Origin: Okamejei kenojei
Lineage: Eukaryota
Direction of reading: 5' to 3'
Assembly: GCA_035221665.1 (NCBI GenBank)
Contig: CM069141.1
Location: forward strand, 41,974,001 to 42,038,000
Length of the DNA stretch: 64,000 nt
Positions 1-63,999 of the stretch are shown here, in pieces (positions within the stretch are counted from its first letter, which is position 1; the number at the start of each line of letters is the position of its first letter). Position numbers and translations under genes: made by a program. The notes beneath the pieces were generated by a model. The model made no database searches and was not told where the DNA came from. It saw only the letters and a program-made list of their open reading frames with translations.

Positions 1-300
1 CCAAAGTGCAACACCTCACACATGCTCAGGTTTGAATCCATCAGCCATTTCTGCAACAAATCTATATCCCACTGTATCTTCTCACAGCATTCCTTACTGT
101 TTGCAACTTCTCCAATGTTGATGTCATCAGCAAACTTACATTTAGGTCATTGATATATATCATAAACTGCAGAGGTCCCAGCTGAGATCTCTATGGAGGT
201 CCACTGGTGACAGACATCCAGGCAAAATATCTACCTTCCACCACAACCATTTTCTATGAATAAGCTAGTTCTGAATCCAAATCTATGTATCTGTCCAAAT
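1..300 (-). mobile_element. CR1-type LINE RT fragment (degraded)
   Basis: The reverse complement contains a KFADD-like motif (gatgtcatcagcaaactt at ~120-138). Its paralog is part of the minus-strand CR1 at ~54580-55200. Confidence 0.7.
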
Positions 301-1719
301 GTCGATTATACATTGTAACTGTAACTACCTCAACTACTTCCTGCGGCAGCTCGTTCAATTTCTCCGAGGTGAATATGCAACATCCCAAGGTATTATTTCA
401 AAGAACAAGAAATATCCTCAGTTCTTGGCCAATAATCAGTCCTTAATTAAAATCAATTTAAAAATCTACATCGCAATCTATATCTCATAATCACCACATT
501 CTTGTCTGTAGAAACTGGCTTTCCATTTGTTGTTTGTACTTTGAAATCTCCTGACAGTTTTAAAAATACTTGATAAAATGTATGTCCCATTTCACTTTAA
601 TCACAAATATTTCCCAACTACATTTTGCAATACTTCACACAATTTAAATCCATGATATTTCATGTTGTTCTAATAGAAACATTAAACATTTTGTATTAAA
701 AGCAATTTCAAGGCATCCTTATCCACTTTGATCAGCTGCAGTCAAATCATGCAGTCTATGGAAATAGAAATATATTGCAACAGACATTAGAAGACAACTT
801 GTCATAGTTTGAACTTTTAGTCTGACCTTCAAATGTAGAAGCTGTGACAGAGTTTGTATCCTGTGCACGGAGAGACTCATTTGTGGTTAAAGGATTTTGT
901 GTGGTGATCTCTGGAACAGAAGAAATAATAATTTATTGTGCTGGTGCTGGTGAAGACATGTTCTGTCTCACTCACTGCTTTGCCACATATTGCATCAGCA
1001 TCATTCAGCTCACACACAGCTAACCCACTGGGTAGAATATAGAACCAGTGATTGTGGTGTTTTAGATCATTCATAGGGCCTTTCCAGATTTTCCACATTT
1101 AAAAATAATCATAATCCATTGGATTGTACTTACTGATGTGCACTCATTATCAAAGGTAAACAGCGTATGAGTAAACATTTTATTTTGAATTGGAAGCCTG
1201 AAGGTGGTGGGTGCAATGGGTCTGCCAGGACAGTGCAGCTGGTTGATCTCGGGGAAGCACTGGAAGTGGAACTGTGTGTGATGACGGGACTAGAAGTTGT
1301 CCAAAGAGTAAGAGGCTATAGGTGAGGCACTAAATGCTAACTTTGCATCTGTATTCATCAAGTAGAAGGACACGGAGGATAGTGGTCTATGACTTATGAA
1401 AATTGAAACACGAGGGGAAACCAAGGCAATGAACTCCACGCAGGTGGCACTGGTCAGGATCGAACCCGAATCACTGCAGCTGTGGGTAAACTGTGCTAAC
1501 AGCAACATCGTTGCGATGTCAGGAATGATACAGATATATGTAACATTGAGCTGTCTACAGTCCAAATTCACTAACACGTCTTGAAACAGTCCAAAGATCT
1601 TCACATGGCAACAAAACTAGCCAAGTCTTTGGGTATTTTTAAAGCGGAGATTGACATGCAATAACATATTATTGTGTAAATAATTATGGAAATCGGGATA
1701 AGCGTGAGAGACATTTAGC

Positions 1720-2220
1720 CTACATCAGAATTCCAAAAGTAAGGAGAAATGACGGTAGATAGAAGCAAGAGCTGAAGGGACAACAACAGCCAGAGTGCTT
1801 GGCGAACTTTGGCCATTTGCTCACTGCATTTCATCAACTAAGGCATTATTTGTGTTTTTTCTTGATTTCTTTGGCATCTAAAAAGTTTCAGAAGTGATAA
1901 ATCTGGCTGTAAAATCTAAAAATCGCCCATGGTTCTCAAGTGGGTTTTTACATACAAAATGAAAACGCCTCTGAAGCAAAATTTACAGTCAGATGTATCA
2001 CTTCTGAGACTTTTTAGATACCAAAGGAATCAAGAAAAACCACAAAAAATGCCTTACTGTTGATGAAATGCAGTGAGCAAACGCGATCATTCCCAATATT
2101 TTCAATTCCGATATCTGCACGGCCAATGTTCGCCAAGCACTTTAGCTGTTGTTGTCCCTTCAGCTCTCGCTTTTCTTTACCTTCATTTCGCTTCATTTCT
2201 GGAATTCTGAAGTTGGGTAC
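1720..2220. mobile_element. Fold-back remnant of a THAP-domain DNA transposon
   Basis: ORF 2014-2244(-) gives FRIP...LANIGRAD...RVCSLHF, a THAP zinc-finger signature. 1720-1898 is an imperfect inverted copy of ~1995-2215. Confidence 0.6.
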
Positions 2221-2365
2221 ATGTCCACACAGTGCGAACTCCACACAGGTGGCACTGGCGGTTAGGATCGAACCTGGGTCACACAGCTGCGAGGAAACTC
2301 TGTCAACAGCAACATCGTTGCGACGGCAGGAATGAAACAGAAACGTGTAACATTGAGCTACTTAC

Positions 2366-2713
2366 CATCCAAAACCAGGAGATTCAAATTCACTTTAACA
2401 TCATTAAACAGTCCAGTGATCGCCACACGGCAGCAATACCAGCCGCCGTCTTCTTTCCGGAGCTGATTTATCGTGAGCGACAAGTTTCCTTGCTCAATGT
2501 TACCACCAAGCTGATATTTCTCGGATCGTGCTGAAGTTACTGTTGCTCCGTTTGTTTGAATCAGTTCAGCTCCACAGCCAAAGGTCGGGCACTCTCCCCG
2601 ACCCCAGCACATCGCAGTTTTACCATACTTTCGGACAGAGAAGTGGCACGGCAGAGTGATCGCCTGTCCCGGGTATCCTCGCACTGGTGATCCAGTGGCA
2701 AGGGCCACTCGAC
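2366..2713 (-). CDS. TIM/HAVCR-family receptor, IgV exon (copy A)
   Basis: 348-bp phase1-phase1 exon with canonical sites (tttcag|GT...GATG|gtaagt). It has the six-Cys TIM IgV pattern LPC..MCWGRGEC..FGC..YCCRV..FND. Downstream exons of this copy would lie left of the window. Confidence 0.93.
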
Positions 2714-3134
2714 CTGAAACAGTCCGGGGAAAGACAGTTGTAGCCGGCGCTGAGTGATGAGATAGGGAGTGGCCACAGTGTGACAACCCGTCCCAGTTCT
2801 GAGAAAATGAGCCCGTTACCACTGGCGGCAATTGGGAATATTGTGAAAGGGTTTCTATTTATCGGGATGTGCGTATTGCAGGCAGATCCAGTGTTTACCC
2901 CCCAGCCCCATTTTATCCCAGGGTAAGTGGTGGCGAGCGGCCGTCTCCAATCGTGCAATTCTGTAGCAGCTTTGACACAACCGGTCGGCTTGTGAAGTAA
3001 TTTCAGAGACTGACACGGGGACATATGGGACAGGGACCGACACACATTGTGTTCCCTGAATGACTCCTGGGAAGCAAATATTTTCCTCTCTTGACATTTT
3101 GTTCACATTTCATTTCATTACATTCCAAACTCCC

Positions 3135-3275
3135 CGGGTAGGACCGGAACAAACAATTGGTTGTTAAAGAAGGAACTGCAGATGCTGGAGAATCTGAGTT
3201 TCTCTGAGTTTCTCCAGCTTTTTGTGTAACCACCGGAACAAACAACTCGGACCACAGCTCCAGCCTTAGGTCCAT
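3135..3275 (-). pseudogene. Candidate leader (signal peptide) exon of TIM copy A, interrupted and frameshifted
   Basis: caaATGG Kozak context; MDLRLELWSELFVPV(LP)G. An 89-bp insertion (including one copy of the 14-bp direct repeat accggaacaaacaa, 3143-3156/3232-3245) interrupts it. The expected phase-1 donor reads GGGAGT instead of GTGAGT. Confidence 0.5.
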
Positions 3276-3508
3276 TTGTCCGTTAACAAACCCATTGAAC
3301 TGCCAAAAACAGTGGAACGGATTCGGAGCCGAATATCCTCGATGCCGCCAGATCAGCGCCGACCTGAACTTCAACTCCAACCCCGTTAGTTCACCCCTCG
3401 ACCTTCTCAACTCCAGGGGATGGAGCCCGTCCTCACGATCAGACCCGGATCACTCGGTGACTCGGCTGTACCCCCTCGGTTACACACAGACACACACATC
3501 TCACTTAC

Positions 3509-3568
3509 CCAGGGGGTTTGAATAACACGATTGGACAAACTAATTCAATTCCTGACTCGGAAACGTAC
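3509..3568 (-). other. Candidate 5'UTR exon of TIM copy A
   Basis: tttttttag|GTACG...CTGG|gtaagt, 60 bp, no ATG; conserved at 58396-58455. Confidence 0.45.
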
Positions 3569-3686
3569 CTAAAAAAATAGATACTACGATCAAATGAGCC
3601 ACACCGCCAGTAACAACCATCGCGCTGGACACTGTAGTGCTGGCGTAACTCAGCGGGTCAGGCAGCATCTATGGAGAGAAGGAATA

Positions 3687-3720
3687 GGTGACGTTCCGGG
3701 TCCGGCCCCTTCTTCAGACT
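3687..3720 (-). ncRNA. Degenerate minimal hammerhead ribozyme motif in a Penelope-derived repeat
   Basis: Reverse complement agt-CTGAAGA-aggggccggaccc-GGAA-cGTC-acc; the GAAA box is mutated to GGAA. Paralog at 58574-58607. Confidence 0.5.
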
Positions 3721-4169
3721 CGAATGCACTGTCTCGGCCGCTCTCTGAGCTGTTGCTGGGCCACATCCTGTCCTGTGGCTGTTGTTTCCTACTTGACGTG
3801 GACACGAGTTTGCTTCACAGTATTGTTAATGAATTGAGTAAATTGAGGCAAATCATATCAGACACTCGGTTCCTGCTCTGGCGTTACATCAATATCCAAC
3901 GCGCATAAATTACAACCTCCTTCCGCGTTGCTGTCAGTTTAAATCCTCAGATCACTGGTGACAAAATGCACCGAGCAGATCTCGTGTCTGTCCTGTGCAG
4001 TAGCAGCAGGAAGAGTGAAAATGTTGCCAAGTGCCGACTGGCTGGTCGCTGATCCACCTGAGTCCTGGAATTTAGTGCCACTTTTCAATGTTTTATTTGT
4101 GAAGAGAAGGCGATGAAATGGGGAGAAGGCGAGAGTCTCCGGGAAACTGAGATAATATTTCTAGCATTT

Positions 4170-4605
4170 TTTATAATCATACTTTATTAGCCAAGTATGT
4201 TTTGCAACATATGAGGAATTTCATTTGCCATACAGTCATACCAATAAAAAGCAACAGAACACACAAAATACATTTTAACATAAACATCCACCACAGTGAC
4301 TCCTCCACATTCGTCGCTGTGATGGAAGGCGAAAAAATGTTAACTCTCTTCCGCTTCTTTGTTCTCCCGCAGTCGGGGGCCTCAAGCCTACCGTTGACCG
4401 GATGATCTAGGCTCCCGCAGCCAGTGGTCGGGCCCTCCGTGTCGGGGCAATCAAGCTCCTGCATCGGGGGGGGGGTCTCAGCTCCCCCGCGACGGGTGAT
4501 CTGACTCTGGGTCGGGGCTGGTGCGACCTCCTAGTTGGTGAAATCTGCAGTTGGAGCGTCGATCGAGGCAAGGGCTTGGCTCCAATGGTAAGTCCACATC
4601 CCCGT
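4170..4605 (-). mobile_element. CpG-rich unclassified non-autonomous repeat (truncated)
   Basis: Shares the cacagtga...cactgtg hairpin core and an AATAAA-bearing 3' end with 13280-14020, 16484-17311 and 52520-53330. Confidence 0.6.
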
Positions 4606-4739
4606 CAGTTTCTATTATCACTCCAGGCTGCACTAACGGTTTCATTCTGCACACCCTGCACAACACTGGAGTCTCTAAACTGGAATAATGTGAGCCCCAA
4701 AACTGGTTTATCCTGGGCTGGTGTTATAACCATGACATT

Positions 4740-5390
4740 AGAAATGGTAATACAAGTGGATAGAGTGGTAAAGAAGGCATATGCTATGCTTGTTTTTCAT
4801 AGGTTGGGACATTGAGTATAAGAGTCAAGAGTATAAGATTAGCTCTACAGAACTTTGGCTGGGCTGCATTTGGAGTATTGTGTGCATTTCTGGTTGTCCC
4901 CGTGACGGATGTGGAGACTTTGGAAAGGGTGCAGAGGAGGTTTACCAGAATGATACCTTGATCAGGGGGTATTAGCTGCTGGGAGACGTTGGACAGACTT
5001 GGATTGTTTTCTGTGCAACACTGGAGATTGCGGGCAGAAATGATAGAAGTATCGACAATTATGAGGTGTAGATTGGGTGGATGGTCAGAATCTCTATCCG
5101 AGGATGGTAAAATCAAATACTGCAGGGCATAGTTTTAAGGTGAGAAGGACAAAGTTTAAAGGAGGTTTGCAGGGCAAGTTTTTTACACAAAGATGGTGAG
5201 CACCTGGAATGCGCTGCTGAAGGTAATGGTTGAAGCAGATACGTTAGTGGTATTTAAGAGACTTTCGAATAGACATATGGATATACAGGGGATGGAGGGA
5301 TATGCTTTATGTGCAAGTAGACAAGGGTTGGTCTTGGCATCATGCTTGGCTCAGATATTGTGCTGACCTGTTACATGTTTATGTTCTATG
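4740..5390 (+). mobile_element. CR1-type LINE 3' fragment
   Basis: Degraded QVDRVVKKAY / HLEYCV.F / LERVQRRFTRM motifs followed by a CR1-type 3'UTR. Confidence 0.85.
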
Positions 5391-6464
5391 ACTGATCCCT
5401 GTGCTGGGGTCAGACCCAGGTCCTCTTGGATATGGAAGTGGGTGTATCAGGTACGTGGTGCACTCCACCCCAACTCCCCCACTCCCAGCCCCCCAGGCAG
5501 CTCACCGCTAAAGATTAGCTGAATATCAGATCCCCAAGTAGGGGAATCGATTGGGGGATGAACGGCAGATAGGTGAGAGGAATAAGTGGTGTGAGGTGAG
5601 TGAGGAATTGGGGAAGTAATCAAAAGTGTGAGGATTGAGAGAAGTAAATGATCACGATGATAAGTTGAAGGAGTCCAAAGAGACTGCAGAACAAAACAGT
5701 TGATTTGGTTATGAGAGACATTCAGTTTCCTTTGAGGCGAAACAACTTGTCAAGCTGGGAAATGTGATGTGGGGATGATCACGGGGATCTCAATACAGAG
5801 AAGCAAAGGGAGATGAAGAGGAGCTTCGGGAAAGATCAGCAGGATTCATTCACAGTTGGCAACACTTTCTCCACATCACGTCAACAAAAATAAAACTTCT
5901 AAAACAGCAGCAGAGTGATGCTGGGTTTCCATTTGCACACTGCACTGGGTGGTGATCTGGAAGGTGACATAGGGATAGCAGAGGCACCTATCGCACCAAC
6001 TCTTGCCGTACTTTGGAAAATCAGACTATCTGCCAATATTCCTGCTTCCTGCACATTGGCAGTGACTGATGGGGATTACTCTGGCTGAGAGGATTTTACA
6101 GAGCTGGTCAGGGGAGGCAGTGGAGTGACATCTCAACTATTTGTAGTTGGTAGACTGGACTCAGCAATGGACCTGCACAAATACCCAATGGTTGTTACTG
6201 ACAAATATGTGGAGGAGTGCATACTTACTAATCAAAATTAAGATGAACAACATGACTGCTTTGTTGGTGGAAAGTTCAGGTTCATCACTATGAAGCAGTT
6301 AATTAATATTTCCCCTGATATTTACACTTGAAATATCTGTTGAAGCCACCCATTGCCCCACTAGAATCAACTTGTTCGTTACACAACGGCTTCTTACATC
6401 GGTGTCATTGTAACATTGCTGGTGTCAAAAAGGAAACCTTGTGTTTACATGAACAAATATTTCA

Positions 6465-35894: not shown

Positions 35895-36223
35895 TACTTG
35901 CTGGGCCCATCAGCCGCACCTGAGCAGTTGGGGGAGGGTTGCCGGGTGTACTTCATTCGCGTCACAATGGGGTTTTGTATGATTTAGCAAAGTAATTCAC
36001 TTTATAAACTTTAATTAACCACTTGCCGGGCCCGTCAGCCTCGTCACAATTGAAAATGGCGCCGGGCCCGTCAACCCTCCCCTAACGGCGCACGCACGGA
36101 TACTGGGTCTGGCACCTTCCCCCAACTGCGCAGGCGCGGCTGACAGGATGAGATCGTCATTTTCAGATCGCCTCGAGACTTTCAGAAACTGCCATCACAA
36201 AGGGGCCCAACGGGTCGTCTAGT
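35895..36223. mobile_element. Possible Helitron-like non-autonomous element
   Basis: GC-rich with an internal inverted repeat (cagccgcacctgagcagttgggg / ccccaactgcgcaggcgcggctg); ends gggcccaacgggtcgtCTAGt. Confidence 0.35.
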
Positions 36224-37460
36224 TACCTCTAAAGAACACAGCTGACACTTTAACTGTAGCCGACCACTGAAATTGACAAGCAATCACTCCTATGGGCATG
36301 TGTAACAATGCTCATAATGTGTGATCAGAACAGTATAGGTTTCAACAATGTTTTGAATGGAGATAAGTCTGGATCTTGCAGGAAGTTACTAAATTGGAGT
36401 AAGGCAAATTACAACATTATTAGGCAATTGTTCAGGAAGATACATTGGAAGCAGTCGTTAGTATGTAAGACCCTATCTGACATGTAGGAGTCGCTTTAAG
36501 GATAGTTCGTCAAAGTTCACGACTGGCATATTCCAGGAAGGAGGAGGGATAAGGATAGTAAATTAAGGGAACCTTGGATGACCAAAAAAAAATGGATGAT
36601 TGGAATATGATACCAACACAGATAGTAAGTAGTCTGGATTTTCCCCCAAAACACTGTGCAAATTGGCACAGGGAAGCTACAAGCAGAGAGTTAAATGTTT
36701 GACTCAAATATTGGTGCGGAAGAAATGGGTTTCAATTCATGGGACAGTGGCGGCAGAGTTGCAGGGAAAGAATAAATTGTTCATCTGGGACATGTTTTAC
36801 TTGAATCATGCTGAGACAATGTGAAGACCCCGCCAGCACGCATGCGTAGCATATCGTCGCGCGCATTTGCATCGTCAGGCTGGGGGGGGGAGTGCGCTCT
36901 CTCCTCCGGCTCCTTCATAAAAGGCCGGCAGGTAAGTACTTACCTTCACTCCACAGGATGGACAAGAGCAAGAGGAAGGCGACGCTGTTGAGGAACCGAG
37001 CTGCATCGACCAGCCAACGCACCGGCAGCTTCGAGACATGTGGGGGCAAGAATGCGGAAGTCGGGCGCTCCCGCTACTTTAGCGCCCGACTCATCACCTG
37101 AGTGGTTTACCGCCCCGGAGCTGGATGCAACTGATCCAGACTTCGAGCCCCCTTCCCCCAAGAAAAGAGGGGGGGAAACAGGTACGTGCCAAGGGGCTTC
37201 GCTCATCGCAAGCGACCCCACCCCGAGTTCCAGTAGACCCGAGGGGGCTGGGCCGGGGGACAGCTGCACTATAGGGGAGCCCTACAGCTGTGCACCACCA
37301 CGTACCACTGCCAGGGAGATCTGCCATAGTGCAGTCTGGCAGCGCTGCTGCTGCGTCGAGCAGGCCTGCAGGAGCAGGTGCCGCCGACTAAACACCCCGT
37401 CAGGCTGCGGTCAAGGGCGGAGGTGGCAGCAGTAGACGGTCGGTCAGCTCAGCTCTGGGA

Positions 37461-38741
37461 GTGGCCGACCATGCGCCTCCACGTCAAAAATTGGCCGATT
37501 GTGGAGGTAAGCCTGCACGGACTCCGGGGAGCCAGGTTCTGGGGGCCGGCGCCGATCCAACTCACCTGCCTTCGTATCAGACAGGTGGGCCGCCACAGTC
37601 TGGAAGAAGACAGACTAGCGGAGAGTCCGTGCGGGAGTCGTATGAGCCTACTCGGGCGGTAGGTCACGACAACCTGCCATTGGACCCTAGACAGCACCTT
37701 ACGGAGGTGTGGTCCGATGGTGGAAGCCCCAGTGATTTTGCAGGGCCTGGGGAAGTCGGCTTGTCCGCTGCACATAGCAGGGACGGTCGCATAGAGCGGT
37801 TGGAGCTCTTAGTGGAGCAACTCCTCCAGCGGGACCGGGAACGGGAAGAGCGGGACTCACGGGCATCCACAAGCCGTGCAAGGAGCCCGCTCAGCATCTC
37901 GTCGTCACCAGCCAGAAGTGCTAGCAGTTGCCCAGCCGCTGTGTTTGAAGACGACCCAGGACAGCCAGTGACCGCTGAGCCAGAGCATGAGGAGGATATG
38001 CTGGACGAGGTGGGCAAGTTTGCCGCTACTACACAAACAGGGGAACCCCTGCACCACAAACTGGCGGGCACCATTGATTACCTGACTACTCACCAACTCC
38101 AGAGTCAGGTTCTCAATGATACCATAGAGAAAATAAAACCGCCCGAGAACTGCATCAACCTCAGTGTGCCCTTGGTTAATGCCCAGATCTGGGGACACTT
38201 GAGTACGGCCACCAGGATGCAGGATGTCCGCCTCCAGCGTATCTTAAAGGTTCTCTCCACGGGCATAACGGCGTTTGCTAGGACCCTGGACGGGGATAAT
38301 GTGTCCAGTGAACAACAAGATGCACTGGCACTCCTATGCCACGCCCAGTATGAGATAAACTGCCTGCGTAAGAGCTCCATTAAGCCCACACTCAACCCCA
38401 AATTCGCGGGGTTGTGCCGTCCATCAACCGCTCCACCGCCTCATCAATTGTTTGGAGACCTGTCCAAACAGGTGAAGGAACTGGACGAGGAGGCCAAAAC
38501 AGCTGGCCTCATGAAACCTCCTACGGCCAGACTTCACCCATATCACCGGCAACAGCCAAACACAACCTGGAAACCACGACTGCCGGACAGGACACAAAGG
38601 ACCTATCCACCTCCACTTCCCCAAACACAACGACCTTTTTTAGGGCAAGGCCAACAGTGGCCTGCATGGAAGATGCGGCCGCCATCCCGTCAACCTCCAC
38701 AACGTCCACCCAAAACACCATACGTAAGGAACCGTCACTAA
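37461..38741 (+). CDS. DIRS ORF1 (gag-like); true start probably further upstream (~36958), frameshifted
   Basis: 426-aa ORF with P.NC..L.VP.VN..IW, D..LQ, and LFG motifs typical of DIRS gag; Pro/Gln-rich tail. Confidence 0.8.
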   Translation: MADHAPPRQKLADCGGKPARTPGSQVLGAGADPTHLPSYQTGGPPQSGRRQTSGESVRESYEPTRAVGHDNLPLDPRQHLTEVWSDGGSPSDFAGPGEVGLSAAHSRDGRIERLELLVEQLLQRDREREERDSRASTSRARSPLSISSSPARSASSCPAAVFEDDPGQPVTAEPEHEEDMLDEVGKFAATTQTGEPLHHKLAGTIDYLTTHQLQSQVLNDTIEKIKPPENCINLSVPLVNAQIWGHLSTATRMQDVRLQRILKVLSTGITAFARTLDGDNVSSEQQDALALLCHAQYEINCLRKSSIKPTLNPKFAGLCRPSTAPPPHQLFGDLSKQVKELDEEAKTAGLMKPPTARLHPYHRQQPNTTWKPRLPDRTQRTYPPPLPQTQRPFLGQGQQWPAWKMRPPSRQPPQRPPKTPYVRNRH

Positions 38742-38743
38742 CC

Positions 38744-40576
38744 ATGGAGGTAAGGGGGCCTGGTTCCTCTCACGCTGTAGCATCCCCTCCTGCACAAATT
38801 GGTGGGCGATTGCGCGCTTTTGTGGAAATATGGAACACTGTCACCACAGATGAGTTTATTTTACAAAGTGTTCAAGGCTATGTTATAGAATTTATTGGTG
38901 GTGTAAATCCCCCTACCCAGCATTCGCCTCATAGGAAGTTTACACTATCCCAAAAAGAGGTGGAGGCAGGACATGCTGAAATTATACGGCTAGCAGCAAC
39001 AGGGGTAATTGGCAAAACAACGCATGAACCCATTGAGTTTGTGTCCAACATTTTCACCAGAATTAAAAAAGATGGGGGATGTCGGATTATAATAGACTTA
39101 ACTGAGCTGAACACTTTTGCACAATATACCCACTTCAAAATGGACACTTTTGAAACAGCCAAACAGATGGTTTACCCAGGGTATTTTATGGCATGCATCT
39201 ATTTAAAAGATGCATACTATATGGTGCCCATTTCTGAGGCTCACAGGAAATTTCTGAAGTTTGTCTGGAAGGATCAATTATGGGAATACAAGGCATTGCC
39301 CAATGGGATCACCACAGCACCTAGGCTGTTTACAAAATTAGTAAAACCTATATTGGCTCTTCTCCGACAACAAAATTATATGGTTATGGCATATTTGGAT
39401 GATATCCTCATAGTGGGTCAGACCCTCCAATTGGCTACACGGGCAGTGGCTGCAACTAAGGCTCTCTTTGAGAAGCTGGGATTTGTAATCCATCCAGACA
39501 AGTCAAAATTGCACCTGGTACGGGTTATGGACTATTTGGGGTTCACTCTAGACACCAACTTAATGAAGATTACCATCCCAACCAATAAAGCTACTGCTAT
39601 TAAGGAAGAGCGCCACAGTCTTGCTTGCGCCAGGGTGCCGACCATTCGGCAAACGGCAAAAGTAATAGGGAAATTGGTAGCTACATTCCCAGCTGCACAA
39701 TTCGGACCACTACACTACCGAAATTTACAAAGAGCAAAGATCACAGCATTAAAAGCAAATGCTGGGCACTTTGATCGGCCAATTCGGTTACCACTAAAGG
39801 CTAGAACCGAGCTACTATGGTGGGTTGACAATATTAGTGAGTGTCATAGACCCATCATAGTCAGCAACCCAGACGTCGTGCTACAAACTGACGCAAGCGC
39901 ACAAGGCTGGGGAGCAACTGATACGATGTCCAGTTGTGGTGGTAGATGGAATTCTCGTGATTCTACCTTCCTGGAGTCACATGGGATAAATTATATAGAA
40001 ATGCTGGGGGCATTTCATGGACTGCGGGCTTACTGTACTAACTCACAGAATTTACATGTCCGCCTCCAAATAGATAACACTACAGTGGTGGCTTACATCA
40101 ATCATATGGGTGGTATCAGGTCGCTATCTTGTGATGAATTGGCAAACTCAATTTGGCACTGGTGCATTGAAAGGAATATTTAGATTACAGCGACCTATTT
40201 GCCAGGGAAGCTTAATACAGTGGCGGACACCAGGTCACGAGTATTCAATGACAACATCAAGTGGATGTTGAACCCCCAAATTTTTGGAGACATTATAGCT
40301 CACTATGGGACACCAGATATTGACCTTTTTGCGTCCAGGTTGAACCATCAGATACCAACGTATGTGTCTTGGGAACCAGACCCTGGGGCAATAGCAATTG
40401 ATGCGTTTTCTATCCATTGGGGGAAATGGTTTTGCTACGCATTTCCCCCATTCTGCCTCATCAGTCGGGTATTGCAGAAAATTAAATTGGATTCTGCAAC
40501 TGGCATATTGATCATTCCCGACTGGCCTACACAACCATGGTACCCGATGGTCGTTAAAATTTTAAAACAACCATGA
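38744..40576 (+). pseudogene. DIRS reverse transcriptase-RNase H-methyltransferase ORF (one premature TAG at 40181-40183)
   Basis: HFKM, YLKDAY (first catalytic D replaced by Y), LPNG..APR.FTK, YLDD, YLGF; RNase H TDAS..GWG, INYIEM, DNTT; MT region DIDLFAS..YAFPPF. Confidence 0.92.
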
Positions 40577-40662
40577 TTGGGAAAACACCCCAAATTGATT
40601 ACTCACCCCATTACGGGGGATAGTCATCCTTGCCATGGTCACCTAAACTTATTGGCCTGCAG

Positions 40663-41618
40663 GTTCTGAAAAGACCACTCATCCAGGCGGGCATCTCACC
40701 ACGAGCCATGGAACTCATCTCCGCATCATGCGGAGAATCAACTCGGAAACAGTACCTCACGCAAATCAGAAAGTGGGAGGCATTCTGTGCTCGTACCAAC
40801 AAGACTTCCAACACAGCAACGATACCTGATGTCCTGGAATTCCTAGCTTGCCTCCATTTCGATGCTGGCCTTAGCTACAGTGCCATCAACAGCGCCTGGA
40901 GTGCGCTGTCCTCATACCTGGATATAGGTATAGGCTCCAACCACCTGGTGTCTAAACTCATGAGGGGAGTGTTCAACACCAACCCTCCGCGACCCAGATA
41001 TTCTTTCACGTGGGATGTGGGGATCGTGCTGACCCTACTGAGGAGCTGGGCTCCAATGAATGAGCTACCACTGAAACAGCTCACCCTCAGATGCTAATGG
41101 CACTGACTACAGCCCAACGAGTCCAGACGTTATAAAAACTGCGACTGGACAGCATGGTGGCCACCCCTGGTCGAATAAATTTCTTTGTCCAAGATTTATT
41201 GAAGCAGCACAGGCCAGGGGCGCATGGGCAACAGTTGGAATTTCGGGCATACCATGTAGATGCCACTCTCTGCATAGTCACCCATCTCCACCACTACATC
41301 GGGATTACAGGAGCCATCAGGATGAAGGAACAGGGGTTCCTCATCAGCCACAAACCTCCGCATCATCAGGTGACTGTACAGACTATCGCCAGGTGGCTCA
41401 GGGTCGTGCTGGATGCAGCAGGAGTTGCTACTGACATTTTTAAGTCTCATTCCACTAGGGCTGCATCCACATCAGCGGCGAGGGCCATGGAGGTGCCCAT
41501 GGACCACATCCTCGCCACCACGGGCTGGGCCAGTGAAGAAACCTTTCAACGGTTCTACAATAAGCCACTGGTCGCCCCTGCGACATTCGTAGAAGCTGTG
41601 CTGGGAACCGCTCAGTGA
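40663..41618 (+). pseudogene. DIRS tyrosine recombinase (frameshift near 41090)
   Basis: ST.KQY..W..FC, LSYSAIN..SALS, PPRPRY..WDV, then HSTRAASTS and GW.SE.TF.RFY carrying the catalytic Tyr. Confidence 0.92.
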
Positions 41619-42558
41619 ATGTCTGTCCCCGAATTAGGGGTTATTTGTTTGTTTATTTGATTAATAAATTGTGTTGCTTTTTCAGCCAGTTTCAACTGAA
41701 CTGCATTTACAGCCTTCCTCCATCAGAATGGCGGCAGTGTGATAAGCATGGACGTTGTCCAGGGCGTGAAATCACAGAGCTTTGAAATCTTCACGAACTC
41801 ACTCACGTGACTCCGAAGTAAAATAGTAAGATTAAACGAGAACTTACCAAGTTTGAAGGTTGATCTGTATTTTACGAGGAGTCGCGGTGAGGGATTTTGT
41901 GCCCCCCGCTCCCACCCTCTATCATAGGATCAACTAGGAAGTTCTGCGTTCTTCATCTTACTATTTTTAGTCATGGTGCGTTCTGTGATTCCACACCGCT
42001 GCTTTGAAGGATGCTGCGCATGCGTGCTGGCGGGGTCTTCACGAAATCCCTCACCGCGACTCCTCGTAAAATACAGATCAACCTTCAAACTTGGTAAGTT
42101 CGCGTTTAATCTTACTATTTTATGTCTAAAAATACTTTGACGATATTCTTAAAAGGTGAAATGGATGAGAATATCGAAATTCCTAATTAATATTTATGGG
42201 AATTACATAAGTGCAGAAATTGAGGAGTGGATGATTATAAAGTCTATGCAGATGTTCAAGAAGTGGTGAGATGTAAACAAGGTATAAATGGTCAAGACCC
42301 TTAAATGACAACTTCACGTGACATCTACATTTGTTTTTTGACTGATTACCTGAGAGTCTTGACTTCCGGTTACTAGCTAGAGATGCATCCACAAGACCAA
42401 TGGCCCAGTGCTATTCTAATTTCACTTTCCACCACAAACTAGGTGCACAGGTAGGTAAAGAGCCAAGGATGGTGGGACCACATGGAGGAGGTCCAGTGTT
42501 CCGTGAACCTTAGGGAAGCCTGGTTCAGAGCAAGTCCACAGGCCCCCAACACCCAAGA

Positions 42559-44870: not shown

Positions 44871-45032
44871 TCAGCGGGCAGGCAGCATCTCTGGATAGAA
44901 GGAATGGGTGACGGGATGACATTTCCAAATTTCTCCAGCCCCATGTGTTCACTTTTTTCAACTAGCATCTGCCCTTTCTTGTGTATGTCATTATTTGTAT
45001 CTACAGTGCCTTGTGTCTTGGCAATTCATGAT

Positions 45033-45520
45033 TCACACACACACAATGCTGGGGTAACTCACACACACACACACACACACACACACAATGCTGGGGTAAC
45101 TCACACACACACACACAATGCTGGGGTAACTCACACACACACACAATGCTGGAGTAACTCGCACACACGCACACACACAATGTTGGAGTAACTCGCACAC
45201 ACACACAATGCTGGGGTGACACACACAATGCTGGGGTAACTCGCACACGCACACACACAATGCTGGGGTAACTCACACACACACACAATGCTGGGGTAAC
45301 ACACACACACACACACACAATGCTGGAGTAACTCACACACACACGAACAATGCTGGAGTAACTCACACACACACTCACACACACAATGTTGGAGTAACTC
45401 ACACACACACACAATGCTAAGGTAACTCACACACACATACACACAATGCTGGAGTAACTCACACACACACACGAACAATGCTGGAGTAACTCTCACACAC
45501 ACACAATTCTGGAGTAACTC
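45033..45520. repeat. Compound minisatellite: about 16 units of aatgctgg(g/a)gtaactc separated by (CA)n
   Basis: Read directly. It runs straight into a Penelope-derived fold-back at 45520-45635. Confidence 0.95.
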
Positions 45521-45765
45521 AGCGGGACAGGCAGCATCTCTGGAGAGAAGGAATGATGATGTATCGGGTCGAGACCCTTCCTTAGACCACTACCCAGAGA
45601 TGCTGCCTGTCCCGCTGAGTTACTCCAGCATTTCGTCTAACGTTTGGTGCCGCTACAACTGGGTCGTTGCTGAGAGACTGATTTATTGCAGCATTCATTA
45701 AAAGTGTTCAATGTTCTAGATATACTTTAGATTTTATGTAGTTTGAGCCTTTGATAAATGCTTAC

Positions 45766-54580: not shown

Positions 54581-55200
54581 TCAACCATTCCCTTCATCTG
54601 AAACCCTCTAATCCAGGCAACATTCTGGTAAACCTCCTCTGCACTGTCTCCAAAGCCTCGACATCTTTCCTATAATACATGATCAGAACTGCCACAATAC
54701 TCCATATGTAGCCTAACCACGATCCTATAGAGCTAAATCATGACCACCTGATTCTTATATTGAATGCACCTAACATTGAAGGAAAGCACCCTATCTATGT
54801 GTGCTGCTATCTTCAATGAGCTATGAACTTGGACTCCGATCCCAGTGCACATCAATGCTGTTAAGGATCTTGCCATTAACTATATAGTCTCTCCTGACAT
54901 TCAACCTCCCAAAGTGCAACACCTCACACATGCTCAGGTTTGAATCCATAAGCCATTTCTGCAACAAATCTATATCCCACTGTATCTTCTCACAGCATTC
55001 ATTACTGTTTGCAACTCCTCCAATGTTGCTGTCATCAGCAAACTTACATTTAGGTCATTGATATATATCATAAACTGCAGAGGTCCCAGCTGAGATCTCT
55101 ATGGAGGTCCACTGGTGACAGACATCTAGGAAAAATATCTACCTTCCACCACAACCATTTTCTATGAATAAGCTAGTTCTGAATCCAAATCTATGTATCT
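54580..55200 (-). mobile_element. CR1-type LINE fragment
   Basis: Antisense LETVQRRFTRMLPGLEG and KFADD-like remnants. Confidence 0.75.
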
Positions 55201-56599
55201 GTCCAAATGTCGTTTATACATTCTAACTCTAACTACCTGAACTACTTCCTGCGGCAGCTCGTTCAATTTCTCAGAGGTGAATATGCAACATCCCAAGGTA
55301 TTATTTCAAAGAACAGAAATAACCTCAGTTCTTGGCCAATAATCAGTCCTTAATTAAAATCAATTTAAAAATCTACATCACAATCTATATCTCATAATCA
55401 TCACATTCTTGTCTGTAGAAACTGGCTTTCCATTTGTTGTTCAGTACTTTGAAATCTCCTGACAGTTTTAAAAATACTTGATAAAATGAATGTCCCATTT
55501 CACTTTAATCACAAATATTTCCCAACTACATTTTGCAATACTTCACCCAATTTAAATCCATGATATTTCATGTTGTTCTAATAGAAACATTAAAAGCAAT
55601 TTCAAGGCATCCTTATCCACTTTAATCAGCTGCAGTCAAATCATGCAGTCTATGGAAATAGAAATATATTGCAACAGACATTAGAAGACAACTTGTCATA
55701 GTTTGAACTTTTAGTCTGACCTTCAAATGTCGAAGCTGTGACAGAGTTTGTATCCTGTGCACCGACAGCCTCATTTGTGGTTAAAGGATTTTGTGTGGTG
55801 ATCTCTGGAAGAAGAAATAATAATTTATTGCGCTGGTGCTGGTGAAGACATGTTCTTTCTCACTCACTGCTTTGCCACATATTGTATCATTCAGCTCACA
55901 CACAGCTAACCCACTGAGTAGAATATAGAACCTGTGATTGTGGTGTTTTAGGACATTCATAGGGCCTTTCCAGATTTTCCACATTTAAAAATAATCATAA
56001 TCCATTGGATTGTACTTACTGATGTGCACTCATTATCAAAGGTAAAACAGCTTATGAGTAAACATTTTATTTTGAATTGGAAGCCTGAAGGTGGTGGGTG
56101 CAATGGGTCTGCCAGGACAGTGCAGCTGGTTGATCTCGGGGAAGCACTGGAAGTGGAACTGTGTGTGATGACGGGACTAGAAGTTGTCCAAAGAGTAAGA
56201 GGATGTAGGGGAGGCACTAAATGCTAACTTTGCATCTGTATTCATCAAGTAGAAGGACACGGAGGATAGTGGTCTATGACTTCTGAAAATGGAAACACGA
56301 GGGGAAACCGAGGCAATGAACTCCACGCAGGTGGCACTGGTCAGGATCGAACCTGAATCACTGCAGCTGTGGGTAAACTGTGCTAACAGCAACATCGTTG
56401 CGATGTCAGGAATGATACAGATATATGTAACATTGAGCTGTCTACAGTCCAAATTCACTAACACGTCTTGAAACAGTCCAAAGATCTCCACATGGCAACA
56501 AAACTAGCCAAGTCTTTGGGTATTTTTAAAGCGGAGATGCAATAACATATTATTGTGTAAATAATTATGGAAATCGGGATAAGCGTGAGAGACATTTAG

Positions 56600-57085
56600 C
56601 CGACATCAGAATTCCAAAGTGAGGAGAAATGACGGTAGATAGAAGCAAGAGCTGAAGGGACAACAACAGCCAGAGTGCTTGGCGAACAATGGCCGTTTGC
56701 TCACTGCATTTCATCAACTAAGGCATTATTTGTGTTTTATCTTGATTTCTTTGGCATCTAAAAAGTTTCAGTAGTAATAAATCTGGCTAAAATCTAAAAA
56801 TCGCCCATGGTTCTCAAGTGGGTTTTTAGAAAACGCCTCTGAAGCAAAATTTACAGCCAGATGTATCACTTCTGAGACTTTTTAGATACCAAAGGAACCA
56901 AGAAAAACCACAAAAATGCCTTACTGTTGATGAAATGCAGTGAGCAAACGCGATCATTCCCAATATTTTCAATTCCGATATCTGCACGGCCAATGTTCGC
57001 CAAGCACTTTAGCTGTTGTTGTCCCTTCAGCTCTCGCTTCTCTTTACCTTCATTTCGCTTCATTTCTGGAATTCTGAAGTTGGGT
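56600..57085. mobile_element. Fold-back THAP-domain DNA transposon remnant (copy B)
   Basis: Paralog of 1720-2220; ORF 56866-57111 contains RVCSLHF. Confidence 0.6.
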
Positions 57086-57232
57086 ACATGTCCACACAGT
57101 GCGAACTCCACACAGGTGGCACTGGCGGTTAGGATCGAACCTGGGTCACACAGCTGCGAGGAAACTCTGTCAACAGCAACATCGTTGCGACGGCAGGAAT
57201 GAAACAGAAACGTGTAACATTGAGCTACTTAC

Positions 57233-57580
57233 CATCCAAAACCAGGAGATTCAAATTCACTTTCACATCATTAAACGGTCCAGTGATCTCCACACGGCAG
57301 CAATACCAGCCGCCGTCTTCTTTCCGGAGCTGATTTATCGTGAGCGACAAGTCTCCTTGCTCAATGTTACCACCAAGCTGATATTTCTCGGATCGTGCTG
57401 AAGTTACTGTTGCTCCGTTTGTTTGAATCAGTTCAGCTCCACAGCCAAAGATCGGGCACTCTCCCCGACCCCAGCACATCGCAGTTTTACCATACTTTCG
57501 GACAGAGTAGTGGCACGGCAGAGTGATCGCCTGTCCCGGGTATCCTCGCACTGGTGATCCGGTGGCAAGGGCCACTCGAC
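57233..57580 (-). CDS. TIM/HAVCR-family receptor, IgV exon (copy B)
   Basis: 348-bp phase1-phase1 exon with canonical splice sites; LPCHYS..MCWGRGECPIFGC..GWYCCRVEITGPFND. Confidence 0.93.
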
Positions 57581-58001
57581 CTGAAACAGTCCGGGGAAAG
57601 ACAGTTGTAGCCGGCGCTGAGTGATGAGATAGGGAGTGGCCACAGTGTGACAACCCGTCCCAGCGCTGAGAAAATGAGCCCGTTACCACTGGCGGCAATT
57701 GGGAATATTGTGAAAGGGTTTCTATTTATCGGGATGTGCGTATTGCAGGCAGATCCAGTATTTACCCCCCAACCCCATTTTATCCCAGGGTAAGTGGTGG
57801 CGAGCGGCCGTCTCCAATCGTGCAATTCTGTAGCAGCTTTGACACAACCGGTCGGCTTGTGAAGCAATTTCAGAGACTGACACGGGGACATATGGGACAG
57901 GGACCGACACACATTGTGTTCCCTGAATGACTCCTGGGAAGCAAATATTTTCCTCTCTTGACATTTTGTTCACATTTCATTTCATTAGATTCCAAACTTC
58001 C

Positions 58002-58161
58002 CGGGTAGGACCGGAACAAACAATTGGTTGTTAAAGAAGGAACTGCAGATGCTGGAGAATCGAGGGTTACACAAAAAGCTGGAGAAACTCTGAGTTTCTC
58101 CAGCTTTTTGTGTAACCACCGGAACAAACAACTCGGACCACAGCTCCAGCCTTAGGTCCAT
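58002..58161 (-). pseudogene. Candidate leader exon of TIM copy B, interrupted in frame
   Basis: 108-bp insertion including the direct repeat accggaacaaacaa (58010-58023/58118-58131); expected donor reads GGAAGT instead of GTAAGT. Confidence 0.5.
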
Positions 58162-58395
58162 TTGTCCGTTAACAAACCCATTGAACTGCCAAAACCAGTG
58201 GAACAGATTCGGAGCCGAATATCCTCGATGCCGCCAGATCAGCGCCGACCTGAACTTCAACTCCAACCCCGTTAGTTCACCCCTCGACCTTCTCAACTCC
58301 AGGGGATGGAGCCCGTCCTCACGATCAGACCCGGCATCACTCGGTGACTCGGCTGTACCCCCTCGGTTACACACAGACACACACATCTCACTTAC

Positions 58396-58455
58396 CCAGG
58401 GGGTTTGAATAACACGATTGGACAAACTAATTCAATTCCTGACTCGGAAACGTAC
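58396..58455 (-). other. Candidate 5'UTR exon of TIM copy B
   Basis: cttattttag|GTACG...CTGG|gtaagt. Confidence 0.45.
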
Positions 58456-59055
58456 CTAAAATAAGAGATACTACGATCAAATGAGCCACACCGCCAGTAA
58501 CAACCATCGCGCTGGACACTGTAGTGCTGGCGTAACTCAGCGGGTCAGGCAGCATCTATGGAGAGAAGGAATAGGTGACGTTCCGGGTCGGGCCCCTTCT
58601 TCAGACTCGAATGCACTGTCTCGGCCGCTCTCTGAGCTGTTGCTGGGCCACATCCTGTCCTGTGGCTGTTGTTTCCTACTTGACGTGGACACGAGTTTGC
58701 TTCACAGTATTGTTAATGAATTGAGTAAATTGAGGCAAATCATATCAGACACTCGGTTCCTGCTCTGGCGTTACATCAATATCCAACGCGCATAAATTAC
58801 AACCTCCTTCGGCGTTGCTGTCAGTTTAAATCCTCAGATAACTGGTGACAAAATGCACCGAGCAGATCTCGTGTCTGTCCTGTGCAGTAGCAGCAGGAAG
58901 AGTGAAAATGTTGCCAAGTGCCGGACTGGCTGGGTCGCTGATCCACCTGAGTCCTGAATAGTGCCACTTTTCAATGTTTTATTTGTGAAGAGAAGGCGAT
59001 GAAATGGGGAGAAGGCGAGAGTCTCCGGGAAACTGAGATAATATTTCTAGCATTT

Positions 59056-59490
59056 TTTATAATCATACTTTATTAGCCAAGTATGTTTTGCAACATATGA
59101 GGAATTTCATTTGCCATACAGTCATACCAATAAAAAGCAACAGAACACACAAAATACATTTTAACATAAACATCCACCACAGTGACTCCTCCACATTCCT
59201 CACTGTGATGGAAGGCGAAAAAATGTTAAATCTCTTCCGCTTCTTTGTTCTCCCGCAGTCGGGGGCCTCAAGCCTACCGTTGACGGGATGATCTAGGCTC
59301 CCGTAGCCAGTGGTCGGGCCCTCCGTGTCGGGCAATCAAGCTCCTGCATCGGGGGGGGGTCTCAGCTCCCCCGCGACGGGTGATATGACTCTGGGTCGGG
59401 GCTGGTGCGAGCTCCTAGATGGTGAAATCTGCAGTTGGAGCGTCGATCGAGGCAAGGGCTTGGCTCCAATGGTAAGTCCACATCCCCGTC
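59056..59490 (-). mobile_element. CpG-rich unclassified repeat (copy B paralog of 4170-4605)
   Basis: Duplicated with the segment. Confidence 0.6.
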
Positions 59491-59624
59491 AGTTTCTATT
59501 ATCACTCCAGGCTGCACTAACGGTTTCATTCTGCACACCCTGCACAACACTGGAGTCTCTAAACTGGAATAATGTGAGCCCCAAAACTGGTTTATCCTGG
59601 GCTGGTGTTATAACCATGACATTA

Positions 59625-60282
59625 GAAATGGTAATACAAGTGGATAGAGTGGTAAAGAAGGCATATGCTATGCTTGTTTTCATAGGTTGGGACATTGAGT
59701 ATAAGAGTCAAGAGTATAAGATGTAGCTCTACAGAACTTTGGCTGGGCTGCATTTGGAGTATTGTGTGCATTTCTGGTTGTCCCCGTGGCAGGAGGGATG
59801 TGGAGACTTTGGAAAGGGTGCAGAGGAGGTTTACCAGAATGATACCTTGATCAGGGGGTATTAGCTGCTGGGAGACGTTGGACAGACTTGGATTGTTTTC
59901 TGTGCAACACTGGAGATTGCGGGCAGAGATGATAGAAGTATCGACAATTATGAGGTGTAGATTGGGTGGATGGTCAGAATCTCTATCCGAGGATGGTAAA
60001 ATCAAATACTGCAGGGCATAGTTTTAAGGTGAGAAGGACAAAGTTTAAAGGAGGTTTGCAGGGCAAGTTTTTTTACACAAAGATGGTGAGCACCTGGAAT
60101 GTGCTGCTGATGGCAATGGTTGAAGCAGATACTTTAGTGGTATTTAAGAGACTTCCGGATAGGCATATGGATATACAGGGGATGGAGGGATATGCTTTAT
60201 GTGCAAGTAGACAAGGGTTGGTCTTGGCATCATGCTTGGCTCAGATATTGTGCTGACCTGTTACATGTTTATGTTCTATGAC
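59625..60282 (+). mobile_element. CR1-type LINE 3' fragment (copy B paralog of 4740-5390)
   Basis: Duplicated with the segment. Confidence 0.85.
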
Positions 60283-60910
60283 TGATCCCTGTGCTGGGGT
60301 CAGACCCAGGTCCTCTTGGATATGGAAGTGGGTGTATCAGGTACGTGGTGCACACCACCCCCACTCCCCCACTCCCAGCCCCCCAGGCAGCTCACTGCTA
60401 AAGATTAGCTGAATATCAGATCCCCAAGTAGGGGAATCGATTGGGTGATGAACGGTAGATAGGTGAGAGGAATAAGTGGTGTGAGGTGAGTGAGAAATTG
60501 GGGAAGTAATCAAAAGTGTGAGGATTGAGATGATCCACAACGATAAGTTGAAGGAGTCCAAATAGACTGCAGAACAAAACAGTGGATTTGGTTTTGAGAG
60601 CCATTCACTTTCCTTTGATGCAAAACAACATGTCAAGCTGTGAAATGTGATGTGGGGATGATCACGGGGATCTCAATACAGAGAGCAAAGGGAGATGAAG
60701 AGGAGCTTCGGGAAAGATCAGCAGGATTCATTCACAGTTGGCAACACTTTTTTGCACATCACGTCAACAAAAATAAAACTTCTAAAACAGCAGCAGAATC
60801 ATGCTGGGTTTCCATTTGCACACTGCACTGGGTAGTGATCTGGAAGGTGACATAGGAATAGCAGCAGCTAACTCCTCACACAGTGAGAGCAGCAATGTAA
60901 CAGTGGTAGA

Positions 60911-62277: not shown

Positions 62278-63180
62278 TAGTTCACTTGCAAGCTACTATA
62301 CAACATTAACTATTACTTACCTTTAGGTCAAGATTATTTTAGAGAGAGATCTTACCAAGAAAACCACAGGATGTTCTCCATCATAGCCTGAGGTTTCAAT
62401 CCGTCTTGCTTAAAGAACAAAACACATACTGCTGGAGGTCAGGACCATTCTTCCGACGGATGCTGTCTGACCTGCTGAGCTCCTGCAGCAGTTTGTTTTT
62501 TGCTCAATATCCAACATCTGCAGTTTCTTGAATCTCTAGCTTGAAGAAGACATTCTCATCAGCATATTCCCCGTCCCACCAGAGGATCAAATAGTCTCAA
62601 CCACTGGTGCTCCACTATTAGAGACACCTATTGCACCAACTCTTGCCCGCACTTTGGAAAAGCAGACTATCTGCATGTGTTCCTGCTTCTCACGCATAGG
62701 CAGTGACAGATGCAGATTGCTCTGGCTGAGAGGATTTTACAGAACTGGTCAGCGGAGGCAGTGGAGTGACTTCACAACTATTTGTAATTGGTAGACTGCA
62801 CTCAGCAATGGACCTGCACAAATACCATGGTTGTTACTGACTGAGTAAGGAAATATGTGGTGGAGTGCATTCTTACCAATTAAACACTCTTGACACTTGA
62901 AGATGAACAACAGGACTGCTTTATTCGTGGAAAGTTCAGGTTCATCACTATGAAGTAGTTAATTAATATTCTCCCGGATATTTACACTTGAAATATCTGT
63001 TGAAGCCACCCGTGGCCCCACTAGAATCAACTTGTTAGTTACACAATGGCTTCTTACATCGGTATCACTGTCACATTCCTGGGTTCAAAAAGAAAATCTT
63101 GTGTTTATATGAACAAACATTTCATAAGTGATAGAAGCAGAATGTGGCTAGTCGGCCCATCAAGTCTACTCTGCCATTTA

Positions 63181-63999
63181 ATAGTAAGATTAAACGAGAA
63201 CTTACCAGTTCGAAGTTTGATCGTTATTTTATGAGGAGTAACAATGAGGGATTACGTGAAGAAGCCCCGCCTGGCGCATGATCGGCATACTTCAAAGCAG
63301 TGGCATGAAAAACACAGAACATAATAGCCGGAGTAAGCTAGTAAGGCTCAACATAGATTTAGAACTACCAGATGATCATTTATTTTATGAGGGTCGGGAG
63401 TGGAGGGCACATAATCCCTCATCGTTACTCCTCATAAAATAACGATCAAACTTCAAACTGGTAAGTTCTCATTTAATCTTACTCCTTTACTTCGGAGTCA
63501 CGTGAGTGATTACGTGAAGATTTTGCAGCTCTGTGTTTTTTATGCCGTAGACTCATTCCATAGACACTCTGGCTCAATCAACACAGTAATGAGCAAATAA
63601 CACATTTTTTCCCAAACATTGCTTCAGTTTATGTGATAAGTTTTTTCATTATAAAAGAATGAAAGTAATGCCCTTTCTATTAAAAGGCAAATTTATCACC
63701 AAAATATCAATTGATAATATAATTTGATAATATAAACAAAGCAACAATTACAGAGAACCCAACACACCGTGTCCAATCCTGACACCATGACTGGTTCCTT
63801 GTTACTTTAATATTTATTTTACATCCTCCTACGGCTTTGAATCTTTGCTTGAGCGGCCCATCCTGTGCCATTCCTGTGAATGTATCTACCTCCTTAATGG
63901 AGTAATTTTCCACATCTCAATGTCTAGTTCCACTGAGTCTTAAACATGTTTTAACCATCTAGAATGTAATTATCTAGAACCATCAGTTTTTACTGATAC
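63181..63999 (-). mobile_element. 3' end of a second, diverged DIRS element running off the window
   Basis: 63181-63535 is the reverse-complement architecture of 41770-42121 (atagtaagattaaacgagaacttacca..., its inverted copy, then cttcggagtcacgtgagtg). Confidence 0.85.

Follow-up and report, generated by a model that had tools for sequence, protein, structure and literature searches.

Candidate end-of-gag frameshifting and a predicted pol-spanning intron in a decayed DIRS1-like retrotransposon of Okamejei kenojei

How a retrotransposon with three successive coding regions expresses the two downstream ones is the question raised by the region ~36821-42122 of a 64-kb stretch of Okamejei kenojei DNA (assembly GCA_035221665.1, contig CM069141.1, positions 41,974,001 to 42,038,000; "the window" below means this whole stretch). 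The region is a decayed, ordinary member of the DIRS1-like retrotransposons, and Pfam matches give its open reading frames the order gag, reverse transcriptase (RT)-RNase H-methylase (pol), tyrosine recombinase (YR). A first-pass annotation had proposed two introns in one transcript. The second, which takes out pol, was supported by conservation in relatives, whereas the first was not. The combination that we favour, a -1 ribosomal frameshift at the end of gag together with a pol-removing splice, would yield Gag-Pol and Gag-YR, and we give this model a probability of about 0.72 on the sequence comparisons described here.

A single transcript would begin in the left inverted repeat. Ribosomes would start at the gag ATG and most would end at the gag stop, giving Gag, while a minority would enter the pol frame by a -1 slip at the heptamer 38636-38642. 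The unspliced RNA would serve as the genome template and would yield Gag and, via the slip, the RT-RNase H-methylase as Gag-Pol. RNA spliced from the donor at 38750 (D2) to the acceptor at 40662/40663 (A2) would also yield Gag, and the same slip would lead through a short leader into YR, giving a Gag-YR fusion; both enzymes could be packaged through Gag. We infer slipping, splicing, the fusion proteins and their packaging from the motifs, reading frames and conservation that the comparison brought out.

The motifs listed by the first-pass annotation are present. These included the donor CAG/GTAAGT at 36931/36932 (D1), the acceptor-like CCTTTTTTAG/G at 38643/38644 (A1), where the gag frame reads R-P-F-L-G, pol-frame ATGs at 38666 and 38744, the donor GAG/GTAAGG at 38749/38750 and the acceptor CTGCAG/GTT at 40662/40663. 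The join of 38749 to 40663 is in frame, as had been stated, and is open for 146 codons from ATG 38744, up to the YR frameshift of this particular copy. A third ATG, at 38673 in the gag frame, lies inside the supposed exon 2 and had been overlooked. In the window, the motifs by themselves were not clearly above chance: CAGGTAAGT occurred twice in 64 kb against 0.57 expected, with two reached in 10 of 100 shuffles, MAGGTRAG occurred 14 times against 9.9 expected, and Y8AGG six times against 12.7 expected. Sites inside the element were ranked with ad hoc scores and not with MaxEntScan (246 GT sites and 335 AG sites); D1 ranked first and D2 11th among donors, and the 38643 site ranked 50th and the 40662 site 11th among acceptors. 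D2 and the YR acceptor were raised above chance because they are conserved in relatives.

The relatives came from two sources. The best 120 of 904 pol homologs, six gag homologs, and 3 plus 150 YR homologs were used as proteins (P-numbers below), and 19 DIRS loci (L001-L019) were obtained by scanning genome records of bacteria and archaea. The loci are whole or partial animal-type DIRS elements inside bacteria-titled records, nine of the 19 titled Sedimenticola, and are most likely host DNA carried over into the assemblies. None of them belongs to the window's own clade. As their pairwise pol identity is only 30-61%, they were treated as distinct families. The gag/pol junction is covered by 13 loci and the YR start by 16. 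One locus, L007, carries gag and pol as one open frame (829-4078), without a slip site and without D2; this arrangement is either a variant or a deletion, and the locus still has a methylase-motif (PPFS) acceptor and an open YR frame.

The T-tract that the first-pass annotation had taken for an acceptor is a canonical slippery heptamer in the gag frame, which had been overlooked. It follows the X_XXY_YYZ rule for -1 frameshift heptamers (PMC5009743, available text), and the downstream reading frame lies at -1. PFLG is found in 6/6 gag homologs and FFR in the pol frame of 3/6 proteins reaching that far, so that the DNA is fixed as T TTT TTA GG. A gag-frame heptamer lies within the gag/pol overlap in 12/12 loci that have an overlap and in the window, against 2.8/13 expected from dinucleotide shuffles. 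This count omits L007, in which gag and pol share one frame, and becomes 9/12 when Z=G is disallowed; the shuffle comparison labels L015 by an earlier heptamer. The types were A AAA AAC (four), T TTT TTG (three), T TTT TTA (two), G GGT TTT (two) and C CCA AAC (one). On this evidence a -1 ribosomal frameshift heptamer is the better reading of the 38643 "acceptor", and a -1 slip site is very probably a feature of the family. Folding of the sequence 3' of the heptamer, with a mean z of -1.0 over 13 elements and negative values in 11/13, is only suggestive of a downstream structure that may act as a frameshift stimulator.

The same region speaks against the first intron (36932 to 38643) as originally proposed. 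Under that model, which we consider unlikely, splicing D1 to A1 would take gag out, RT would be translated from an ATG in the short exon left between the two introns, and the second splice would put YR behind this ATG. In its favour, no other GT site of the element matches U1 as well as D1, TTTTTTAG/G would pass as an acceptor and lies where PFLG is invariant among the gag homologs, ATG 38744 has a good context and P0003 likewise starts MEV, and the gag-frame W that yields ATG 38666 is present in 4/6 homologs. What is conserved, however, is the heptamer: its variants mostly have neither an AG nor a pyrimidine tract, some being A-rich, an AG follows the heptamer in only two of the 12 loci (L008 and L015), and a pol-frame ATG between slip site and donor is present in 2/12 loci, being absent from the other 10 and from 3/3 database pol proteins long enough to include both FFR and the donor motif. 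A conserved acceptor followed by a pol-frame start was therefore not found. Even relatives of the PFLG type (P0007, P0043, P0054 and L015) lack the leader ATG, the W-derived codon is Leu or Val in P0007 and P0054, and A1 has only its rank of 50/335. Since heptamers are mostly AG-less and the leader ATG is mostly missing, acceptor plus ATG fails in distant loci, while the slip works in all. The T-tract may additionally serve as an acceptor in the window's clade alone.

The donor after the gag stop was more constant. In the pol frame, the footprint of a phase-0 donor reads [EQK]-V-[SRGCW]. An N-terminal stretch of 22 residues or more ahead of the RT start was present in 42 of the 120 pol proteins, 31 of them non-redundant, and the footprint was found in 18/31 N-termini against 2.3 in shuffles (0/5000 shuffles). 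It came first of 1024 codon classes (z 11, next 3.6), its sole tie being an indistinguishable class. At the DNA level, 14/17 donor-like sites were in phase 0, with one per element in 13 (12 loci and the window) at no more than 50 nt from the gag stop; 12 of the 13 distant loci spanning the junction have this donor, L007 being the one without it. The Val codon at D2 is GTA or GTG in 12/12, compared with 186/342 in RT. By the 50-55 nt rule, a stop codon this close to an exon junction escapes nonsense-mediated decay, and the nearness of the gag stop to the D2 junction would let the spliced RNA escape it. A high-scoring acceptor-like tract was also seen at 38780/38781, ~31 nt after D2 and too near to pair with it.

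On the acceptor side, a phase-0 acceptor with an open YR frame behind it was found in 14/16 loci. In 12/16 loci it is a strong YAG acceptor in the PPFS codons of the methylase, 201-216 nt upstream of the A2-equivalent position; in L009 the PPFS acceptor is displaced by an indel, L006 is frame-broken, and in L012 and L019, where the serine is gone, phase-0 candidates occur further on. The PPFS Ser codon is AGY in 11/11 parsed loci against a background of 143/490 (29%). Upstream of the acceptor the YR frame has 349 stops per 4007 codons (8.7%), and between acceptor and YR start it has 0 per 904. Because the frame is stop-free after the acceptor, including 605 codons that precede any YR ATG (14 loci), YR translation would enter from upstream. 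In L004, L010 and L015 the last YR-frame stop includes the acceptor AG. Joins of D2 to the acceptor were open for 317-400 codons in 10/10 loci tested. Conserved and phase-matched GT...AG ends, as of a U2 intron, point with high confidence to a D2-to-YR splice in the family.

The window itself departs from its distant relatives in the place of the acceptor. After the AG at 40464/40465 its YR frame has three stops in 66 codons and is closed up to 40623, and A2 coincides with the first codon of YR homology. In a quick tree of 113 rows, with L006 and L009 left out, the window's clade comprised 59 rows with a Shimodaira-Hasegawa-like approximate likelihood ratio test (SH-aLRT) support of 100. The residue after PPF varies in this clade (49/59 non-Ser), and the arginine of the C-R pair is present in 58/59 of its rows compared with 4/38 outside. 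The closest YR protein, P0130, has Q before the YR start, matching CAG, and P0133 shows FFR, a leader ending in KE and then YR from query position 1, a join at the A2-equivalent position. P0133 was the one clear case in a scan of 150 YR matches for leader-to-YR joins; the other long matches were rejected as looking like frame read-throughs or gene models, and a search for longer YR proteins returned just three matches. The C-R acceptor was likewise rejected as a family-wide feature, with an AG at the A2 position in 0/16 distant loci; those among them that have C-R or F-R read CGN there. The exact place of A2 is thus clade-specific, with support at the protein level. As the window's YR acceptor, A2 is probable, although less firm than the family-level signal, and in the clade the acceptor seems to have shifted out of the PPFS motif and into the C-R codons.

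Several points weigh against the frameshift-plus-splice model. Nine of the 19 loci share one record set, though their pol identities are only 30-61%, and both slip site and D2 are missing in L007. The hairpin of the window is not significant alone (z -0.7), and 2/13 loci fold worse than shuffles. Leader ATGs do exist in the window, L008, L011 and P0003. The D2 protein motif was originally spotted by eye, and the acceptors of L012 and L019 were chosen after the open frame was seen. The exact A2 position is without AG in 16/16 distant loci; A2 rests on protein footprints, and the arginine may have CGN codons or be retained for a functional reason. The clade shift counts as a single event. As for P0133, its gag-to-pol switch resembles a predicted intron, and the protein may come from gene prediction.

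Donor D1 raises a second alternative, in which Gag-Pol would arise by frameshifting and a free YR would be made by splicing from D1 or another 5' donor to the YR acceptor, with translation from ATG 40708 or 36842, possibly beside the D2 product. The first ATG after 40663 (40708) is in the YR frame and in a strong context, P0121 starts at the equivalent Met, and the 90 nt from ATG 36842 to D1 are open and in phase 0. This alternative leaves unexplained the conserved phase-0 D2 and the stop-free codons before any YR ATG; moreover, L011 has no YR ATG within 101 codons, and D1 showed no positional conservation. We consider it improbable. D1 is the best U1 complement among the 246 GT sites of the element. 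In the nine loci with a 5' region, a comparison run without a control, no conservation of its position was seen, and donor-like sites precede gag in about half of them, at varying places. An intron of 25 nt would be below the normal length, and the AG at 36956/36957, only 25 nt past D1, is too near to pair with it. A CATAAAA at 36916 is TATA-like and the sequence around 36948 initiator-like (window 36916-36952); together they could form a separate gag promoter with its start downstream of D1. D1 should be transcribed, because the replication model for DIRS elements, in the available text of PMC7192593, requires transcription to start within the left repeat. Possible partners for D1 are 40663 (free YR from ATG 40708, or in frame from 36842), 38644, or none. 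A partnerless D1 could possibly act through U1 on transcription or polyadenylation, by analogy with PMC5580714 as far as its text was available.

Two further explanations fared worse. YR could be produced without splicing, by a second -1 frameshift out of pol giving Gag-Pol-YR, as proposed for Ngaro (Poulter and Butler 2015, as quoted in the available text of PMC13003380), and YR does overlap pol in the -1 frame. A pol-frame heptamer inside the open YR stretch was found, however, in only 3/16 loci and is absent in the window, and D2 and the AGY-only serine would be left unexplained, making this very unlikely. That the motifs reflect chance or protein-level constraint, as the near-expected window-wide counts and a catalytic or structural role for PPFS and C-R could suggest, is hardly credible given the synonymous-codon restriction, phase bias and stop-free YR frame, which are DNA-level signals.

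The frameshift-plus-splice model is laid out on the element in Table 1.

Table 1. Features of the DIRS1-like element, in window positions.
Feature	Position	Strand	Remarks
Left conserved inverted terminal repeat	36821..36852	+	97% complementary to 42011-42042; 32-nt repeat pair
Donor D1 (intron start 36932)	36929..36945	+	Perfect 16-nt palindrome 36930-36945; 6-bp hairpin over site
Pyrimidine tract and AG 36956/36957	36939..36960	+	Just before gag ATG 36958; top of 335 AG sites (ad hoc score)
gag	36958..38741	+	5' part broken; last open frame 37392-38741; stop 38739-38741
Candidate -1 frameshift signal, T TTT TTA then GGG	38636..38645	+	In gag frame; pol is the -1 frame; same place as acceptor A1
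Pol-frame leader, 36 codons	38642..38749	+	Slip site to D2; ATGs 38666 and 38744, missing in most relatives
Short GC-rich hairpin, candidate stimulator	38645..38665	+	Directly 3' of heptamer; folding z -0.7
Donor D2, GAG/GTAAGG	38747..38755	+	Phase 0 in pol frame; 8 nt after gag stop
Predicted intron D2-A2	38750-40662	+	1913 nt; removes pol
RT-RNase H-methylase (predicted intron region)	38750..40669	+	Natural stop 40667-40669
Methylase PPFC motif	40439..40465	+	Place of the PPFS acceptor of distant relatives; acceptor-like AG 40464/40465
Acceptor A2, probable	40645..40665 (cut 40662/40663)	+	Terminal C-R codons of pol; phase 0 in YR frame
Tyrosine recombinase (YR)	40663..41618	+	Frame change near 41091; first own ATG 40708
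Internal complementary region (ICR)	41780..41901	+	Left boundary approximate
Right inverted repeat and right extension	42011..42122	+	Complementarity to left repeat and ICR

The identity of the element was well supported. Its gag was 43-55% identical to the six gag homologs, with a start at 36958 similar to the skate and sea urchin gag starts P0126 and P0129; the two closest named homologs were skate proteins (45-46% identity), which by itself would point to a cartilaginous fish as the probable host. The pol frame matched the 904 pol homologs, as expected of the RT/RNase H frame of a DIRS1-like element, and was 64% identical to P0001 over 640 aa. Its RT domain matched Pfam RVT_1 (E 7.7e-16); the Dam match of the methylase (E 0.012) was short of the curated cut-off, and a methylase domain after RNase H was also backed by the DLFAS and PPF motifs and by the full-length alignment with P0001. 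YR, 63-66% identical to P0121, matched Phage_int_SAM_4 (2.9e-6) and Phage_integrase (0.0013), and a recombinase stands where an integrase would. The inverted terminal repeats and the ICR are complementary to the ends, as in DIRS1-like elements, with the ICR part 41819-41901 98% complementary to the right-end 42040-42122. The left end is slightly truncated, and we infer from the ICR that ~25 nt of the predicted left terminus are gone from this copy. This particular copy is dead: its pol frame has two premature stops in 675 codons (40181 and 40574), YR shifts frame near 41091, and gag has frame changes in the part before 37392.

There was no second coding copy of the element in the 64-kb window. 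At 63180-63539, on the minus strand, lies a piece of the right end, comprising ICR and terminus, from a related DIRS family (78% identical); it had no DNA-level match to the coding part of the element. No Rfam match was found within 36000-42500. Upstream of the ICR, near 41663, there is an AATAAA, and a donor-like GGTAAG was observed near the right end of the window element (42091-42099, mirrored in the ICR) and of L005 (5213), L007 (5379), L010 (4643) and L013 (4986); their occurrence possibly relates to U1 control of polyadenylation or to a recombinase site. Elsewhere in the window, ~1-5500 and 54909-60400 form a long direct duplication of 96-99% identity, ~54.9 kb apart, which may have arisen by tandem segmental duplication or be a feature of the assembly, and at 45020-45560 an array of ~30-nt CA-rich repeats adjoins a member of a dispersed repeat family with ~9 occurrences across the window.

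The element resembles described DIRS1-like elements (Piednoel et al. 2011, PMC3266345; Malicki et al. 2020, PMC7192593; available text of both) in its gag, RT-RNase H-methylase and YR frames, inverted terminal repeats and end-complementary ICR, and it shares the short conserved inverted terminal repeat and the little pol/YR overlap of the tabulated Aplysia DIRS elements. No mechanism for pol or YR expression is given in the available text of these two papers, and that of PMC3266345 mentions neither splicing, introns nor translation. The slip site resembles the retroviral gag-pol frameshift, with the same heptamer T TTT TTA and next codon GGG as at the HIV-1 gag-pol site (PMC4373837, available text), pol at -1 and a hairpin predicted downstream. 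Unlike in HIV-1, the splice here could put the recombinase in the place of pol behind the same slip site, and the hairpin is weaker and its role putative. DIRS elements are unmentioned in the accessible part of a frameshift review (PMC5009743). Alternative splicing of plant Ty1/Copia elements (Oberlin et al. 2017, PMC5580714, available text) similarly involves a conserved splice setting protein ratios, with the unspliced RNA also serving as genome; it yields a Gag-only RNA, whereas the DIRS splice would exchange enzymes and need a frameshift. Ngaro, in the quotation noted above, likewise has YR in the -1 frame overlapping the end of pol, but for the DIRS1-like elements the evidence favours splicing as the route to YR and frameshifting as the route to pol. 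No such mechanism was found in the available text of PMC7192593, PMC9341512, PMC9210276, PMC5633606, PMC3266345, PMC6681497, PMC3950715, PMC4157794, PMC13003380, PMC5009743 or bioRxiv 10.64898/2026.05.21.726589. Neither the combination nor either step for DIRS1-like elements was found in the literature searched; the Poulter/Goodwin reviews lie outside that search and may already mention a gag-pol frameshift. Each step has a precedent (retroviral frameshifting, Copia splicing, the proposed Ngaro frameshift), and their stacking in DIRS1-like elements appears new within that literature.

Animal DIRS1-like elements probably share an end-of-gag -1 frameshift of retroviral type and a pol-spanning intron that gives a Gag-YR fusion, with an acceptor placed in the codons of the methylase catalytic motif and movable to phase-matched sites. 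DIRS elements are widespread; together with Ngaro they account for 2.1% of the genome in zebrafish (PMC9341512, available text). For an element that would make three proteins from one RNA, the model supplies exact junctions and a slip site. If it is true, acceptor movement would also explain the differing lengths of the pol/YR overlap between families, and some of the seeming protein conservation of the methylase (PPFS) would be a splice signal. The real protein products would be redefined as Gag-Pol and Gag-YR, which would be relevant to biochemistry and to the design of tagged elements.

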